Below are positions 13,210-53,925 of a stretch of 64,000 bases of DNA, piece after piece; the first letter of the stretch is position 1; each line of letters begins with the position of its first letter. This stretch comes from Octopus vulgaris (taxonomy: Eukaryota): positions 126,170,001 to 126,234,000 of the forward strand of contig OX597819.1 of assembly GCA_951406725.2 (NCBI GenBank). Reading direction: 5' to 3'. Position numbers and translations under genes: made by a program. Under the pieces are notes generated by a model, which saw nothing but the letters and a program-made list of their open reading frames with translations, did no database searches and had not been told where the DNA came from.

Positions 13210-13258
<49 letters not shown>

Positions 13259-13260
<2 letters not shown>

Positions 13261-13505
13261 ATAAATATTAGGGAATAAATCCAAATTTACAGGGAAAAAT
13301 CAGATTTAGGATTGAATCCAATTTTATAGTAAAATATTATATAATATTAATTAGAGACAAAACCACTATTATGCAAATCAAACAAAGAAAGACTTAATCC
13401 AATACATAAAAAATTTTATATAAATTAAATAAAATTAAATTAGCCACTACAATTGTTTCGTGTCTCTTCTAAGGACATTCATCAGGTGGTTTTCAGATCT
13501 TCTAT
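13259..13505 (-). mobile_element. Family-A PLE pseudo-LTR with tail, ending at (TA)n
   Basis: Homologous to 19845-20042, 21177-21340, 23175-23415, 32042-32210 and 49231-49494; contains a hammerhead. Confidence 0.8.
13444..13489 (-). ncRNA. Minimal type I hammerhead ribozyme
   Basis: Minus strand: ccac CUGAUGA aUGUC cuuagaaga GACAc GAAAC AAUU GUA gugg. Stem I ccac/gugg; palindromic helix III ACAAUUGU. Confidence 0.85.
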
Positions 13506-13867: not shown

Positions 13868-14860
13868 ATTTCCTTTATTAGGCACTCAGGCCACTAACTC
13901 AGAGGGGACACTACAAGGACAGACACAACACCACAGTGGGGACAAAAAACACAAAACGAATGAGTATGAATATTATATAATAATGAAAGATGAATGGCTG
14001 CATGGGCCCCACTCCTCATGCAGTACCATTTGAACATTTGTATACACAGTCACTATCTATTGTTTTTTCTTTCCTTAATTATCGTTTTTTTCCAAAACTT
14101 TTTCCTTTCTTTTTTCCTTCTTTTTTTGGAAAAAAAAGCAATTAATTTTACTTTTATTCCTCTTTAACGCCTCATGTAAGGCTCCAGTTCTAACAGGTCG
14201 ATTACTGGTGAACTCATTGATTACTCATTGAACTCCACCAGTGCTCCGGCTGGGTCAATTTTACTTCCGCACATGTCTCTCAGTTTCTTATAGGTTTCCC
14301 TATCCACCACAATGGCCTTCACACTCTCTGGGTACACGTCGTTTGGTAACTTTACCCTTATAATCTGCTTTAACTCTACTATTGTTTTCTCCATCTCCTC
14401 GTTCTTGGAATAGGTCACAAAATTCCATTTGTAACTCCCTCCTCTCGGCTTTCTCTTTTCTTCCTCCACTACCCTTCCTATTATAGATTCCTCTATACTC
14501 TTCTCTGAGTCTAGGACCTTCTCTTTCTTCGTCTCTGCTGTAACCAGTTTCTCCATTTCGTCCTCTTGTAGTTGAATTCCTGAGTCTTCCCTCAATTTAC
14601 CTTTCATCTTCATATTTGTTTCCTCCTTCTCTGACTCTTTTTCACACATCTTCTCAATTATTTTTCTCTTTCCTTTTCCGTCTCACTTTTATCATCTTTC
14701 TTTCTCGTTACCTCTTTCTTTTCCATCTCTTCTTTCTTCTTTTTCTGATTAGTCGGTGGTGGGCTTACCTTACCGCTCCTCCTTCTTTTTCTTTCCACTA
14801 GTGTGAATTCTTCTACCGCTGTTGTCTCATTATTCTCACCTGTTACTGTCTCTCTCTGTG
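13868..14860 (-). mobile_element. Probable LINE remnant: charged ORF1-like reading frame (14221-14860) plus a 3' UTR sharing the SINE-B tail
   Basis: Two adjacent E/K-rich ORFs separated by one stop. 13868-13924 resembles the SINE-B 3' end, including AATAAA. No catalytic motif seen. Confidence 0.4.
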
Positions 14861-15898
14861 CAAAGCATTTGAAAGAGATGGAAATCCGTTGGTGCCAAAT
14901 CAGGAGAGTACGGCGGGTGTGGCAGCACTTCCCAGCCATGCGTTTGAATAGCATTCTTGGTCATATTGGCGTTATGAGGGCGGGTGTTGTCGTGCAGCAG
15001 AAGAACTCTATGCTGCCGATTCGGTCTTTTCTCTTGAATAGCCGTATTGAGTCATTCTATCTGTTGACCATAGAGCTCTGCCTTGACCGTTTGGTTCCGT
15101 TCAAGCAATTCGTGATGGATAATCCCTTCCCAGTCGCACAATACGCACAACATCGTTTTACGCGGATGAAGATCTTGTTTCACGTGGGGTGTTGCTTGTT
15201 TACCATTCCTTACGCTGCTTCATATTCATGTACAGGCACCATTTCCGTCGCCAGTAATGATTCGGTAAAGAAATCGTTGATTGTGTCCATGAGTGACAAG
15301 CAAGCAAACCAGCGGAGATCGTGGCTCGTTGAATTTTGTTGTTGTCACTTAAAGTATGCGGAATCCATGCTCCATACTTCTCAAGCTTTCCCATCAAGTG
15401 AAGATGCTTTTCTATAGCAATGTGGGAACATTCCATTTTCTCTACCAGTTTCCTTGTCATTTGATAAGAATTTTCGTGCAAAAGTTGGTTTAATCACTCT
15501 TCATCGAACTCAACTAGATGGCCAGAACGTGATGTGTCTTTAAGGTTAAAATTTCCATTTTTGAACCTGGCATACCAATCACGAGCGGTTCTTTCAGCTA
15601 TGGCACTCCCTCCATACACAGCACAAATGTGGTGAGCAGCTTTTGTGGCCTTAGAACCTTGATTAAAAACAAAAAGAAGGAGGTATCGAAAATGCTCGTT
15701 TTTCTTAACTTGACATTCCATTTTAATGATCTGAAAATAAACAAAAATTAAATAAAATTAACTAGAAAAAAAAACACAACAAAATAGATTTCAAAATAAT
15801 TCAAAAATAGAATTCTCGAAAAAAAAAAATTCCAAAATTTAAAAACGCAATAAATTCGAGATTAAAAAAAAAGGCGGGAACTTAGTTGCCAACCAAAT
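14861..15898 (-). mobile_element. Mariner transposon, 3'-truncated, with frameshifted transposase (ATG at 15721)
   Basis: MECQVKKNEHFRYLLLF..ICAVYG..WYARFKNGNF..RSG, WIPHTL, KWCLY, HPPYSPDLAPTDFHLF. 5' TIR tttggttggcaactaagttcccgcc at 15873-15898 resembles mellifera-subfamily TIRs. Confidence 0.92.
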
Positions 15899-17019: not shown

Positions 17020-17100
17020 TTTCCTGATGAGAAGGCGGCATAATGCACCCCTTATTCCTTCGAAATTAGGAATATGCAGTCTTCGAAACATATGTCGAGA
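17020..17100 (+). ncRNA. Type I hammerhead ribozyme with long helix II, in (TA)n-flanked fold-back unit 16951-17300
   Basis: uuuc CUGAUGA gaaggcggcaua ... uaugcagucuuc GAAAC AUAU GUC gaga. Helix II pairs 11/12; helix III is the palindrome ACAUAUGU. 17-bp inverted repeat at 16951-16967 and 17130-17146. Confidence 0.85.
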
Positions 17101-19844: not shown

Positions 19845-20039
19845 AATTATTTAAATAATTTTTTATTTTTAACTTTTATATTTTAAATTAATTTTATGTA
19901 TTGGCTTATGTTTTTCACTGTTTGATTTGCCTAATAGTGGTTTTATCTCTAATTTAATATAATATTATATATTTATACTATAAAATTGGATTTAATCCTA
20001 AATCTCATTTTTCCCTGTAAGTTTGGATTTATTCACTAA

Positions 20040-21151: not shown

Positions 21152-21186
<35 letters not shown>

Positions 21187-21273
21187 TATTAGAGACAAAA
21201 CCACTATTTTGCAAAACAAACAAGGAAAGACTTAATCAATACATAAAATTTTAATAAATAGTAAAAAAAACCG

Positions 21274-21316
21274 CCACTACAATCGTTTCTTGTCTTGATC
21301 GACAATCTTCAGGTGG
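21274..21316 (-). ncRNA. Minimal type I hammerhead ribozyme (left arm)
   Basis: Reverse complement of 23196-23238. Confidence 0.88.
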
Positions 21317-21577
21317 ACTTCAATAAGAACATACTTATCATCAACATCATCATCATTTAACATCCGCTTTCCATGCTGGCATGGGTTGGATGGTTTGGCA
21401 GAAGCTGGCAAGTTGGAGAACTGCATCAGGTTGTTCCTGTTGGCATGGTTTACAGAAACATTGGACATTCTTCATAATGCCTATCACTTTACAGTGTGTA
21501 GTGGATGCTTTATATGTGGCACCAGCATGGGTGCTTTTGATGTAAATCAATAACATAACTGAAATTAATTTGACTGT

Positions 21578-21619
<42 letters not shown>

Positions 21620-22896
21620 TGGACACATTTTCATTCTGTAATGTGAACGTTTTTAGTTGGATGCAACTCTGTTGAAGAATGTGGAGGCAGCGTATAGATT
21701 TGAACTCAGAGCCCGGAGAATCGGAACATGTGTCGTAATATATTCTATGGAATGTCCCAACAAGACAGCCGATGTGTAATAGAGGCGCCGTTGTTGATTG
21801 AAGAGCACTTATAATGCAAATTAAATTTTTAAAAAAAGTGAAAGCGGATAGACGGAACATAAACCAACAGTTTGCAATTTATATTGTTTGTATTTCCATA
21901 TTGTGGGTATAAAAACCTTTATCAAGAGAAAATGGATGATGGGGATGAAATGATATATTTTACTCACATATATATGAAGCGTCTGCGATATGAACTGAGT
22001 CATATATCATATATAACCAATCCAGTTTATATAACTCGCGTCTGTTGTCAATATATGGATTCAGATTAATAATAAGGATAATCTCCTTAATCCCGAAATT
22101 ACGTTTCCTTTTCAAGTTTCGTGGTAACAGCGATGATATCGGTAAGGTATTTCCTCAAGTGTTTCTTTACTGACGTGATAGAAGCTGGACTTGATAGAAG
22201 CTGGACGTGTTTTTCGCTGCTCTGACCAACCCAGCGAGACAACGGAAAAACTGGAAGATCTACTGTTTTCTGTTTAATAATTTCGAAAAGTGGAGTGTGG
22301 GGTTTCCTTAATATTAAAGAAGAGACAAGTCCGCACAAATACATCAGTAAAGAAACACTTGAGGAAATACCTTACCGATATCATCGCTGTTACCACGAAA
22401 CTTGAAAAGGAAACGTAATTTCGGGATTAAGGAGATTATCCTTATTATTAATCTGAATCCATATATTGACAACAGACGCGAGTTATATAAACTGGATTGG
22501 TTATATATGATATATGACTCAGTTCATATCGCAGACGCTTCATATATATGTGAGTAAAATATATCATTTCATCCCCATCATCCATTTTCTCTTGATAAAG
22601 GTTTTTATACCCACAATATGGAAATACAAACAATATAAATTGCAAACTGTTGGTTTATGTTCCGTCTATCCGCTTTCACTTTTTTAAAAATTTAATTTGC
22701 ATTATAAGTGCTCTTCAATCAACAACGGCGCCTCTATTACACATCGGCTGTCTTGTTGGGACATTCCATAGAATATATTACGACACATGTTCCGATTCTC
22801 CGGGCTCTGAGTTCAAATCTATACGCTGCCTCCACATTCTTCAACAGAGTTGCATCCAACTAAAAACGTTCACATTACAGAATGAAAATGTGTCCA

Positions 22897-22934
<38 letters not shown>

Positions 22935-23195
22935 ACAGTCAAATTAATTTCAGTTATGTTATTGATTTACATCAAAAGCACCCATGCTGGTGCCACATAT
23001 AAAGCATCCACTACACACTGTAAAGTGATAGGCATTATGAAGAATGTCCAATGTTTCTGTAAACCATGCCAACAGGAACAACCTGATGCAGTTCTCCAAC
23101 TTGCCAGCTTCTGCCAAACCATCCAACCCATGCCAGCATGGAAAGCGGATGTTAAATGATGATGATGATGATGATAAGTATGTTCTTATTGAAGT

Positions 23196-23238
23196 CCACC
23201 TGAAGATTGTCGATCAAGACAAGAAACGATTGTAGTGG
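23196..23238 (+). ncRNA. Minimal type I hammerhead ribozyme (right arm)
   Basis: ccac CUGAAGA uuguc gaucaa gacaa GAAAC GAUU GUA gugg. Full core and perfect helices I and II. Confidence 0.88.
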
Positions 23239-23415
23239 CGGTTTTTTTGACTATTTATTAAAATTTTATGTATTGATTAAGTCTTTCCTTGTTTGTTTTG
23301 CAAAATAGTGGTTTTGTCTCTAATAATATTTTATAATATTTTACTATAAAATTGGATTTAATCCTAAATCTGATTTTTTTTCCCTGTAATTTTGGATTTA
23401 TTCCCTAATATTTAT

Positions 23416-23494
<79 letters not shown>

Positions 23495-31593: not shown

Positions 31594-32041
31594 CCATATT
31601 ACAAATGATTCTATACATATATAATTCTCAAACAATCTGTCTCTCTATATTTTTCATATGCACACACACGCTCTCGTGCACACTTACAAATGTGTGTGTG
31701 TGTGTGTATTTATGTGTGTGTGTGTATTTATGTGGGTGCGTAAGAATTTCAATTGTAAGCTGAAATAAATTCATTCCACTCTACCTGAGAGTGTTGAGCA
31801 CTTCACAACAATATATATCAGTTTGAAATACATCATGAATCATAGACATGTGAGTGTTTGTGCGTGGAAGTGTCTCTCCACGTCCCTCTCTATTGTTCTT
31901 TGCCCGTGATTGTTTGATATGATTTTCGTATTTAACACTCTTACATATTTCTCATACAGGATAATCTTGCGACTTTAAATACTCTGACTACATATGGAGC
32001 ACCTCATAATATGCTTCATATATATATATATATATATATAT

Positions 32042-32210
32042 TAATTAGAGATAAAACCACTATTAGGCAACTCAAACAGTGATAAACATAAACCAAAACA
32101 TAGTTTTAATAGTGGTTTTATCTCTAATTTAATTTATATTTATACTGTGAAATTTGATTTAATCTTAAGTCTAATTTTTCCATGTAAGTTTGGATATACT
32201 CCCTAATATT
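32042..32210. mobile_element. Family-A mini fold-back (inverted repeat of about 22 bp plus tail)
   Basis: attagagataaaaccactatta ... taatagtggttttatctctaat, then the family tail. Confidence 0.8.
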
Positions 32211-32311
32211 ATGATTATTATTATTATCATTATTATTATTATTGTTATTATATATATATATATATATATATATGTGAGTATGTATGTATACATATATACA
32301 TATATACACAC

Positions 32312-38029: not shown

Positions 38030-40260
38030 TATTATAGTGCCAAGACTAGAGTGAAACCCTCGTTGTGATTCTGGATAGATATCATTTACAAAGTGTTTGA
38101 TGATCCTGTCAAGAATGAGTCGAGCAAGAAGCTTACCTGCAATAGATAGGTGCGATATTCAACGTTGATTATCTCAAACACTTCTCTTTTGTTTGTTCTT
38201 ATAAAGATGTTCAATTGAGGCATCTTCGAAATCCTGTGGTACACAGCCTACCATCCAAATATCTATGAAGAGGTCATGCAATTTCTTGAAAAAGCTTCCG
38301 TCCACCATCCTTGTACATTTCAGGAGAGATAGCATCTCTGCCAGGTGCTTTACCAGAAGAGATCTGTTTAACAGTTTACCACTTCTAGGAAGTTTGGCTC
38401 CAGAGAAAAACCGGTATTTCAGCGTACTGTGGAATAGACATCATGGAGTCATCAATTGTGACTGAGGTGGAGTTCAACATGGCTTCGAAATGATCTTCCC
38501 ATCGTTTCAGGATGTCAGATTTGTAAGTTAACACCGTTTCTCTATCGGATGAAAAAATAGGAGCAACACCGTGCTTTTGAGGACCTTACACTTTCTTGAG
38601 GTCATCATAAGAGGCTTTAGAATCCTTTCTGTCTGCAACCTCTTGGAGTTCAGTAGCTTTGGAAGACCACCAAGCCTCCTTCATCTGTCTCAGATCAGGT
38701 TGGACCTGCACTCTGCATTTCTTATAAGCATTCTCTTTTCCTGGTGAACTCTTATCATTTATCCATGTCTTATGAGAGTTGTACATTTTAGTTATCAACA
38801 GGTGGACATCTGTGTTGTTATCACTGGACCACCCTTGATGTTTACGAACAGGAAGTCCAATAACCTCTACAGATGCAGACTGCGTCTCCCAAGATGCAGA
38901 GCCTTCCAAGATGATTCTATCTCATCTCTGATACCAACAGTGTTCAACTTAATAGAGGGCTCAGCCTGCTTTTAAGCAGTTTTCAAAGGCAGAATATTAA
39001 TGCACTTAGGCATTGATGACTTTTGTAGTCTTGTGTGTTTCAGATGGAGAAGAGAATGATCAGAAAGGTAGCAGGTGTTATGAAAGGAATGTGTAATGTT
39101 ACAGTCTCTAATATCTCGCTTCTTAGTGATAACATAGTCTATGAGATGCCAATCCTTAGATCTAGGATGCATCCAGGTCGTCTTGCAACAATTTCACTGT
39201 TGAAAAAAAGGTATTTGTGATGCTTTGACTGAATTCTCTGCAGATGGAGAGCACACGCAGACCGCTGGAGTTCCTTCGACCTACACCATGGAAACCAAAT
39301 ACATCCTCCCATGCCTGATAGTAAGTACCAACACGAGCGTTAAAGTCGCCCATAATGATAGGTTTATCTCTATGGTGACTATTGGAGATGACATCACGGA
39401 GGTGGTTGTAAAATTCGTCCTCTTCCTGCTCAGTGCTAACCATAGTTGGAGCAGAGTAACTGACAAGTGTAGTGCGAGTGTTATGATCAAGTTCCAACGT
39501 TAGTGACATGATGCGGTCAGAAATACCTTTGGGTAGAGAAAGAAAGGATCTAGCTATTTCTGTCTTGCTGGCAAAGCCAACACCAAGATGTGGAGCGGCT
39601 CCTCCTCATTTATTCCACACCAGAAAAATACTCATCTCTTTACTTTCTTCTGAGATGAACCTGCAAGACGGGTTTCGCTGAGTGCAACTATGTCAATATT
39701 GTATTTCTTTACTACCCACAAGGGGCCAAACAAGGACAGACAAACGGATTGAGTCGATTACATCGACCCCAGTGCGTAACTGATACTTAATTTATCGACC
39801 CCGAAAGGACGAAAGGCAAAGTCGACCTCGGCGGAATTTGAAATCAGAACGTAACGGCAGACGAAATACGGCTACGCATTTCGCCCAGCGTGCTAACGTT
39901 TCTGCCAGCTCGCCGCCTTAAATATGTCAAAATTGTATTTCTTTAGTTCAAGGGCAACCAGTGCTTTTTTTCGTTCTGGTGCTGAGTGATTGTCTTGGAG
40001 AGTGCACACATTCCAAGAACCAAGGTTAATATTCTTAGATTTCTTCATGCTTTGACTGCGTTGCTGAATAACCGGACAGCTGCAGCGGGCTGCCAAGTTT
40101 AAGGTGAGTAAGCAATGTTTAGGGGTCCTTTTCTCGCCCCCCCTCGCTGTTGGGGAAAGCAGTGCTGTGTCTATATAGACCTGCTTTGTCACTACTGGAG
40201 GATATGGACAGTACAGTTACAAGTTTTGTGCTGGGATGGCCATCACCCAATGGTTGCTAA
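38030..40260 (-). pseudogene. Decayed RTE-clade LINE (AP endonuclease through the start of RT), interrupted by SINE-B
   Basis: INLGSWNVCTL..ERKKALVALELKKYNFDI/VALSETR, SAPTMVS..IIMGDFNARVG, MHPRSKDWHLIDYVIT, SDH, GKLLARLILDRI..YPESQRGF. Confidence 0.92.
39705..39920 (-). mobile_element. SINE-B inserted in the RTE element, TSD of about 23 bp
   Basis: tatgtcaa(t/a)attgtatttcttta at 39689-39711 and 39923-39945. Confidence 0.92.
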
Positions 40261-46877: not shown

Positions 46878-47181
46878 TACGGTTATATATTTGTTTTGCA
46901 AGATTTTTGATGTGAAATCGTGTGTTGAAACAGATATTGTTGTATTTCGGAATGGTCATTTTGCCAGTTTAGCCAATAAAAACACACGCACTATATATAT
47001 AAAGCAAAGGACCACTGATGCGGTCACAGGAGTGTGACGAAGAACTCTGGCCGAAATAAGATTAAGATCAATGTAAAAAATAAATAACGCTGAAGCAAAG
47101 TAACACCAAATATATAGTGTGTGTGTTTTTATTGGCTAAACTGGCAAAATGACCATTCCTAAATACAACAATATTTTGTTT
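46878..47181. mobile_element. Family-X fold-back: arms of about 70 bp (46928-46997 and 47110-47180), spacer of about 110 bp, left tail
   Basis: atattgttgtattt.ggaatggtcattttgccagtttagccaataaaaacacac and its reverse complement. Confidence 0.85.
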
Positions 47182-48488: not shown

Positions 48489-48993
<505 letters not shown>

Positions 48994-49170: not shown

Positions 49171-49230
<60 letters not shown>

Positions 49231-49233
<3 letters not shown>

Positions 49234-49484
49234 AATATTAGGGAATAAATCCAAACTTAGAGGGAAAAATCAGATTTAGGATTGAATCCAATTTTATAGT
49301 AAAATATTATATTATATTAAATTAGAGACAAAACCACTATTAGGCAAATCATACAATGAAAAACTTAAGCCAATACATAAGATTATTTAATTTATATTAT
49401 TTAAATATAAATTAAATAATCTTATGTATTGGCTTAAGTTTTTCATTGTATGATTTGCCTAATAGTGGTTTTGTCTCTAATTTA

Positions 49485-49494
<10 letters not shown>
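49231..49494. mobile_element. Family-A fold-back: perfect arms of about 90 bp (49308-49398 and 49404-49494) plus left tail, (TA)n on both sides
   Basis: Direct reverse-complement comparison. Confidence 0.93.
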
Positions 49495-49558
<64 letters not shown>

Positions 49559-53412: not shown

Positions 53413-53681
53413 ATAGAATGGTGTTGTATACCGTCAATCTCACTCGAACGTGACAGTGGGGGGGGGGTACACCACCGCTGTTTAGCCCTAGGAGCCTCGA
53501 CGCCTCCTGATGGCTTTTGACACATTTTACCTGTGTCCTTATATACAAAAAAAATAAATGTATATAAGGACACAGGTAAAATGTGTCAAAGCCATCAGGA
53601 GGCGTCGAGGCTTCCTAGGGCTAAAAAGCGGTGGTGTACCCCCCCTACTGTCACGTTCGTGTTAGATTGACAGTATACAAC

Positions 53682-53689
<8 letters not shown>
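53413..53689. mobile_element. Fold-back unit: GC-richer arms of about 133 bp, 11-nt A-rich loop, left tail from 53369, (TA)n on both sides
   Basis: 53413-53547 mirrors 53559-53689. Confidence 0.92.
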
Positions 53690-53729
<40 letters not shown>

Positions 53730-53733
<4 letters not shown>

Positions 53734-53925
53734 ATACATAAATATGTTTAGATATACTAGGGTGCTACATGAGCACCTGCTTCACTAAAAATAAAAGTCA
53801 AAATATTTCTAGGCCACAGAAGAATCCCTAAATTAATGGCTTACAAGTAGTTTGACTTCTGAGTTTAGTGAAACAGGTGCTTATGTAGTACCCTAGTATA
53901 TGTAAATATATTTATATATCTTATA
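53730..53925. mobile_element. Diverged fold-back unit next to (TA)n
   Basis: atatactagggtgctacatgagcacctgcttcactaaa and tttagtgaaacaggtgcttatgtagtaccctagtatat. Confidence 0.88.

Follow-up and report, generated by a model that had tools for sequence, protein, structure and literature searches.

The insertion form described for Penelope-like elements (PLEs) consists of an inverted, 5′-truncated copy together with a one-sided tail of 30-40 bp (PMC8557442, in its available sections). The hammerheads listed in the available part of its supplement sit close to the 3′ end in sense orientation. The Hydra-clade table there includes Penelope-13_HM, with an inverted copy of 966 nt. Large and variable inverted PLE ends have been reported in Drosophila (PMC2377424). 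The origin of tandem and inverted PLE structures is still listed among the unsolved questions (PMC8557442). In vitro, a PLE protein was able to cut both DNA strands and extend them, with synthesis beginning at two sites, one at each border of the tail; the RNA it used was mostly uncut, and hammerhead cleavage was not needed (PMC11167929, as excerpted). A single minimal hammerhead gave no cleavage in the work excerpted from PMC4209133.

The capture of host DNA by PLEs has been reviewed (PMC6431247). In Adineta vaga, Penelope capture is represented by an intron-keeping NRPS gene between Pen3a pLTRs, by unique spacers in Pen1 and by an inverted N1 piece in Pen2a (PMC3846280). Antisense self-priming was proposed to explain both head-to-head repeats and intron retention, and the accessible text of that paper leaves open the choice between an antisense and an unspliced sense template (PMC3846280).

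The window analyzed here is a single stretch of 64 kb of DNA, and at 21177-23413 it contains an inverted repeat in which apparently spliced host sequence is joined to ends of one element family, called family A. With the canonical endonuclease-bearing PLEs (Penelope/Poseidon, Neptune and the Hydra clade) it shares the inverted 5′-truncated copy at the 5′ end, the one-sided tail, a sense hammerhead close to the 3′ end and (TA)n as its target; it differs from them, as they are described in the sources available, in that the duplicated kilobase is host sequence rather than element body, the tail is 78 bp instead of 30-40 bp, and no reading frame is carried (PMC8557442; PMC2377424). In common with the Adineta vaga capture, host DNA would have been moved in trans with element ends as the only cis signal, and there too non-element sequence is possible in the inverted part. 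The Adineta vaga cargo lies between two direct pLTRs with all introns kept, whereas here there is one end, and the apparently spliced cargo is mostly duplicated in the inverted arm (PMC3846280). Non-LTR retrozymes, as presented in the accessible part of the preprint, are likewise non-coding, PLE-derived and hammerhead-bearing, but they are short head-to-tail tandem units, in contrast to a single head-to-head insertion with host cargo (bioRxiv 10.64898/2026.07.22.740005). Self-alignment revealed no direct family-A tandem at the 21177-23413 locus.

LINE-1 enzymes also copy spliced RNA in trans, giving processed retrocopies, and 5′ transduction and twin priming are known from them as well; in twin priming two priming events occur at one break, with the result that the 5′ part is inverted without being duplicated. 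The present locus differs in having its 3′ kilobase twice and neither a poly(A) tail nor a defined target duplication. At the 3′ side of the insertion the family-A tail gives way to (TA)n, with no LINE-type poly(A) tail, and since the site lies inside (TA)n a target duplication cannot be defined.

Structure of the Inverted Repeat

The features of the locus are as follows, with positions numbered from the first letter of the window.

21154-21176, no strand: (TA)n tract on the left side of the target, from the sequence.
21177-22173, minus strand: left arm, an inverted copy of 22344-23335 without the tail, starting at the family-A inner end site (arm alignment; the inverted arms at about 32026 and 49499-49508 share this end site).
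21274-21316, minus strand: minimal type I hammerhead motif, left copy, the mirror of 23196-23238, with its core at 21312 (minus).
22174-22271, plus strand: putative exon A, a member of a multi-copy sequence family lying wholly in the spacer (contig matches to 22184-22273).
22271-22272, plus strand: probable exon-exon junction (acceptor in the donor contigs, departure of exon-A-like contigs at GT, join in run X10).
22272-23175, plus strand: putative exon B, which in the host transcript would be the last exon or an untranslated portion (contigs cover 22272-22895).
23190-23335, plus strand: right copy of the pLTR-like end of family A; the copies at about 13.3, 19.9, 32.1 and 49.3 kb are 79-87% identical to it.
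23196-23238, plus strand: minimal type I hammerhead, right copy, with its core at 23200 (plus) and a predicted cut after 23234.
23336-23413, plus strand: the 78 bp that separate the inner end site from the outer one, a tail present in the right arm only (comparison of family end sites).
23414-23490, no strand: (TAT)/(TA)n tract, then (CATA)n, on the right side of the target, from the sequence.

In the BLASTN alignment the inverted arms, 21177-22176 and 22341-23335, are 99.1% identical over 1005 columns, which confirms in the assembly the near-identical arms of about 1 kb reported in the initial annotation. Each arm is about 995 bp long, and the two differ at 4-5 positions. Five differences can be named: 21263/23249, 21344/23168, two TG units at 21580-21583, a single base of an A/T run (21831/22685) and, at the junction, 22174/22343. 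The true identity of the arms may exceed 99.1%, because the first four of these all lie within homopolymer or microsatellite runs and the fifth is at the junction. The spacer measures 164 bp, or the 170 bp originally given if the junction is set at 22173/22344, and contains a 16-bp tandem unit at 22177-22206; the fold-back point shows a short tandem unit and an overlap of 2 nt. The extra tail of the right arm, first put at about 80 bp, and the (TA)n tracts said to abut both ends were also found.

Public sequencing runs were searched for these sequences, and 19 of the 24 rows listed contain part of 22177-22890. Four runs were compared over 22130-22895: X1 and X2 (DNA, organism A), X5 (DNA, organism B) and X10, which is taken as RNA by guess, none of the listed runs being recorded as RNA; other runs guessed to be RNA had small shares and were not used. 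For the contig matches 25 of 48 pieces were listed, and contig depth was not taken as copy number. The contigs of the four runs, which can show presence and not absence, do not cover 22130-22181 and contain no joint, and 22174-22183 had no contig match among the matches listed. Since the fold-back junction is not covered by the run contigs, the hairpin as a whole is known from the assembly only. The best share of words from 22177-22890 in any run was 0.83, where about 0.87 is expected if the element-specific words are missing, and this is compatible with a rare or private insertion.

Family-A Ends and Their Hammerheads

Likeness to family A begins at about 23190. This leaves about 146-155 bp of family sequence in each arm, somewhat less than the outer 165 bp or so given in the initial annotation. 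The hammerhead described there as intact is core-complete in both arms. At 23196-23238 it has a helix I of 4 bp, the core CUGAAGA, a helix II of 4-5 bp, GAAA, and a short self-complementary helix III that pairs fully only as a dimer, between two molecules. The hammerhead descriptor found 7 cores in the window as against a mean of 0.03 in 30 shuffles. No Rfam match reached the gathering score in the window, hammerheads were absent from the 48 weak matches, and in free folding the monomer did not adopt a hammerhead fold (z 0.47-0.77). Given the silence of Rfam and the folding of the monomer, "intact" is to be read as core-complete, with activity only predicted.

The outer ends of the insertion lie on the two end sites of the family. 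Direct arms reach the outer end site in all five family-A loci of the window, and inverted arms stop 78 bp earlier, at the inner end site, in the three loci that have them; (TA)n also lies beside the 3′ ends of the other four loci. At 49228-49508 there is a small near-perfect family-A hairpin between (TA)n tracts, with arms about 97% alike, a loop of a few bases and the tail on one arm. The hairpin at 32026-32220 is older; its tail-less inverted arm contains 48 nt of 5′ sequence that the tailed arm lacks, and the two are joined over a 4-nt overlap. A solitary family-A end is found at 13256-13495 (minus), with a hammerhead variant at 13485 (minus) that has the same layout, other loops and a strictly palindromic helix III loop.

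A search with Pfam of 105 filtered frames from the window (frames under 55 aa or of low complexity left out except for two added by hand, six dropped) revealed no RT or GIY-YIG endonuclease domain of the PLE type. The family-A motif had no locus in three microbial and viral collections, and four 12-letter family-A motifs are absent from the supplement to PMC8557442, in the part of it that is available. Because no family-A coding frame was found, the designation "PLE end" is founded on non-coding features, and agreement with the Hydra clade is limited to the layout of the hammerhead, its place on the sense strand close to the 3′ end and the preference for (TA)n.

Several other observations were made on the sequences of the window. 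Its repeats suggest that it may come from an octopus-like genome. A GTAAGT-like splice-donor motif is present in the tail of two of the five direct family-A arms (e.g., in the 20017-20022 region and at 23385), with one-letter variants in the other three. Further matches to the hammerhead core at 17024 (plus), 30927 (plus), 41573 (minus) and 46437 (plus) are unrelated to family A and are probably ends of other element families. An inverted repeat at 48585-48993, not of family A, has 111-bp arms (99%) around a 187-bp spacer, with its left end against (TA)n; adjacent palindromes of about 275 and 190 bp lie between (TA)n tracts at 53413-53689 and 53731-53922; and 46934-47174 has 65-bp inverted arms (97%) around 111 bp, with related sequence at 13-92. 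A broken mariner-type transposase is present at 14839-15757 (minus), with HTH_48, Transposase_1 and DDE_3 pieces in different frames, and 38586-40216 (minus) is probably a broken LINE remnant, whose endonuclease match is weak and, at E 0.0013, falls short of the curated cut-off.

The Cargo, Its Donor and a Probable Splice Junction

In each of the three DNA runs, among the matches listed, 22272-22895 is matched by one contig of 1119-1128 nt. All three of these donor contigs extend about 475 nt upstream of 22272 into other sequence, in which the letters just before 22272 are 18 pyrimidines in 20, followed by TAG. The last 30 letters of this flank are absent from the 64-kb window. An acceptor this strong occurs at 8 of 127,934 window positions, or about 2 in 10,000 over three registers, by a threshold set after the site had been seen; AG plus GT alone would be met by chance about once in 100.

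On the other side of the boundary, 22184-22273 is matched in each run by at least several distinct short contigs with 0-4 other letters and different flanks. Most of the exon-A-like contigs that reach the end match through the GT at 22272-22273 and then diverge; one contig of X5 diverges after the G. In X10 a contig of 224 nt (depth 2.3) matches 22272-22469 and is joined at 22272 to a third partner of 26 letters, which is absent from the window.

The acceptor in the donor contigs, the departure of the exon-A-like contigs at GT and the change of partner in X10 at the same base lead us to read 22271|22272 as an exon junction, most likely on the plus strand, in the sense direction of the element as marked by its hammerhead; the direction of splicing and the right hammerhead are on the same strand (plus). 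Relative to the donor, a GT-AG intron would have been removed, with AG and its pyrimidine tract present in all three DNA runs and GT on the side of exon A. As the GT fits either side of the junction, a template switch over 2 nt is formally possible. The inner 830 bp or so of each arm, initially taken for ordinary genomic DNA, is thereby better described as part of a probably spliced sequence, and the probable splice junction indicates an RNA step. The broader proposal of a PLE-mediated capture of non-element DNA gains support, in that the donor has a different upstream flank in all three DNA runs and this flank is absent from the window.

Over 624 bp the cargo has no substitution and one 1-bp indel relative to the contigs of organism A, and three substitutions relative to the contig of organism B; the right arm lacks one T that is present in the donor contigs and in the left arm. 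The want of substitutions relative to organism A indicates that the capture is young. No third copy of the cargo is present within the window, and the other family-A copies there carry none of it.

Within exon B lie a (CA)n run at 22899-22932 and, ending at 23175, a piece with a (GAT)n tail. The frames of the cargo had no protein family or close protein match by Pfam and protein comparison. A 59-aa frame across the junction gave 8 weak matches, with 31-46% identity to repeat proteins, and was rejected as chance. Spliced leaders are short and conserved. Exon A, which is at least 88-98 nt long and varies between copies, was therefore dropped as a candidate trans-spliced leader. The family to which 22174-22273 belongs occurs with varied flanks in organisms A and B and could represent either a first exon common to a set of related genes or a piece of a mobile element.

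Proposed Mechanism

We consider it probable that the hairpin arose in one event, in which a spliced host RNA with a PLE end at its 3′ terminus was copied by a PLE enzyme acting in trans. The reverse transcriptase-endonuclease would have been supplied by an autonomous element elsewhere. Its template would have been a host RNA in which exon A had been spliced to exon B and the 3′ portion continued into a solitary family-A end; splicing and sense orientation are strongly suggested by the junction, and the presence of the family-A end at the donor, with read-through into it, is assumed. By analogy with the published in vitro work, the enzyme would cut the (TA)n tract and DNA synthesis would be primed from both broken ends. 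A cDNA of about 1240 nt, running from 23413 to 22174, would begin at the outer start site and another of about 995 nt, running from 23335 to 22344, at the inner one; the two would then be joined head to head. A lone minimal hammerhead would leave the RNA uncut, again by analogy, and the upstream host part would be carried along.

The geometry of 21177-23413 fits self-copying of one cDNA as well as double priming, and the differences between the arms, being in simple runs, do not choose between them. Two primings are favored by the hairpin at 32.0-32.2 kb, in which the tail-less arm reaches 48 nt further 5′, a result that later loss of DNA could mimic.

Alternative Origins

The explanation that survives best after this one has two steps: a LINE turned the spliced RNA into a processed copy that stops at (GAT)n, next to a family-A end, and a PLE later moved the whole as a hairpin. 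A (GAT)n tail does close the cargo, immediately ahead of the PLE end. Tails of this kind terminate LINE and SINE copies. Further, it is the keeping of introns that is known for PLEs (PMC3846280; PMC8557442, in the sections available), and on a two-step origin the PLE template need be neither spliced nor sense. Two events would be needed, however, in a time too short for any substitution relative to organism A over 624 bp, and the single contig that each DNA run has for exon B passes 22272 without a break and enters the intron-like flank. We regard this origin as unlikely.

Less likely again is a template switch. Here the enzyme would have started on PLE RNA and changed, close to the hammerhead, to a spliced host RNA unrelated to it; the resulting single cDNA would have copied itself to give the second arm. 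Jumps and self-priming have been proposed for PLEs (PMC3846280, as excerpted), and self-copying would give the same cargo-to-PLE junction in both arms, as is found. The second arm, however, would have to stop at the inner end site, as inverted arms do in all three loci, and the 32-kb hairpin does not fit simple self-copying.

In favor of a fold-back artefact of assembly, four of the five differences between the arms are in simple runs, where consensus errors are common. Long palindromes are also a known artefact of long reads. Against this, the outer ends lie on the two end sites of the family, with different flanks, and a junction that passes directly from one locus to the AG acceptor of another could not arise from genomic reads. 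An artefact is for these reasons very improbable.

The last two explanations are, in our estimation, likewise very improbable: a local inverted duplication of DNA at the gene's own locus by replication template switching, which could draw on the 2-nt overlap and the short tandem unit found where the sequence folds back, is opposed by the absence of the donor's upstream flank from the 64-kb window, and a DNA event of this kind would neither drop an intron nor stop at a PLE end site; and membership of the whole unit in a multi-copy non-autonomous PLE family with an old captured sequence as its body, suggested by the multi-copy nature of exon A and by the non-autonomous PLE derivatives described in the accessible parts of PMC8557442 and bioRxiv 10.64898/2026.07.22.740005, is opposed by exon B, which is one long contig with a non-element upstream flank in each of the three DNA runs, and by the other family-A copies in the window, which are without cargo.

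Significance

The hairpin layout is the ordinary form of a PLE insertion, and the apparently spliced cargo is the surprising part. PLE capture of host DNA was already known with introns kept; a spliced cargo in sense orientation is apparently the new element here. In the literature searched, where subscription papers are thinly covered, no case was found in which a PLE had copied spliced host RNA. The spliced cargo hints that PLEs can copy mature, forward-strand RNA, which is a debated point. As splicing marks the template strand, a head-to-head insertion of this kind is a natural test of which strand served as template.

This is a single event, known from the assembly, and a two-step origin would remove most of its mechanistic value. 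For the more general proposition, that PLE enzymes can write a spliced sense host RNA with one solitary element end twice, from two start sites, and so produce processed retrocopies as kilobase hairpins, we consider the case evenly balanced. If it is true, head-to-head PLE repeats need no antisense template and intron retention is not obligatory. PLE end sites around host exons provide a searchable signature with which events could be counted genome-wide. There would then be a route to young hairpin copies of host transcripts, and each such event would plant a possible source of double-stranded RNA matching the donor gene.
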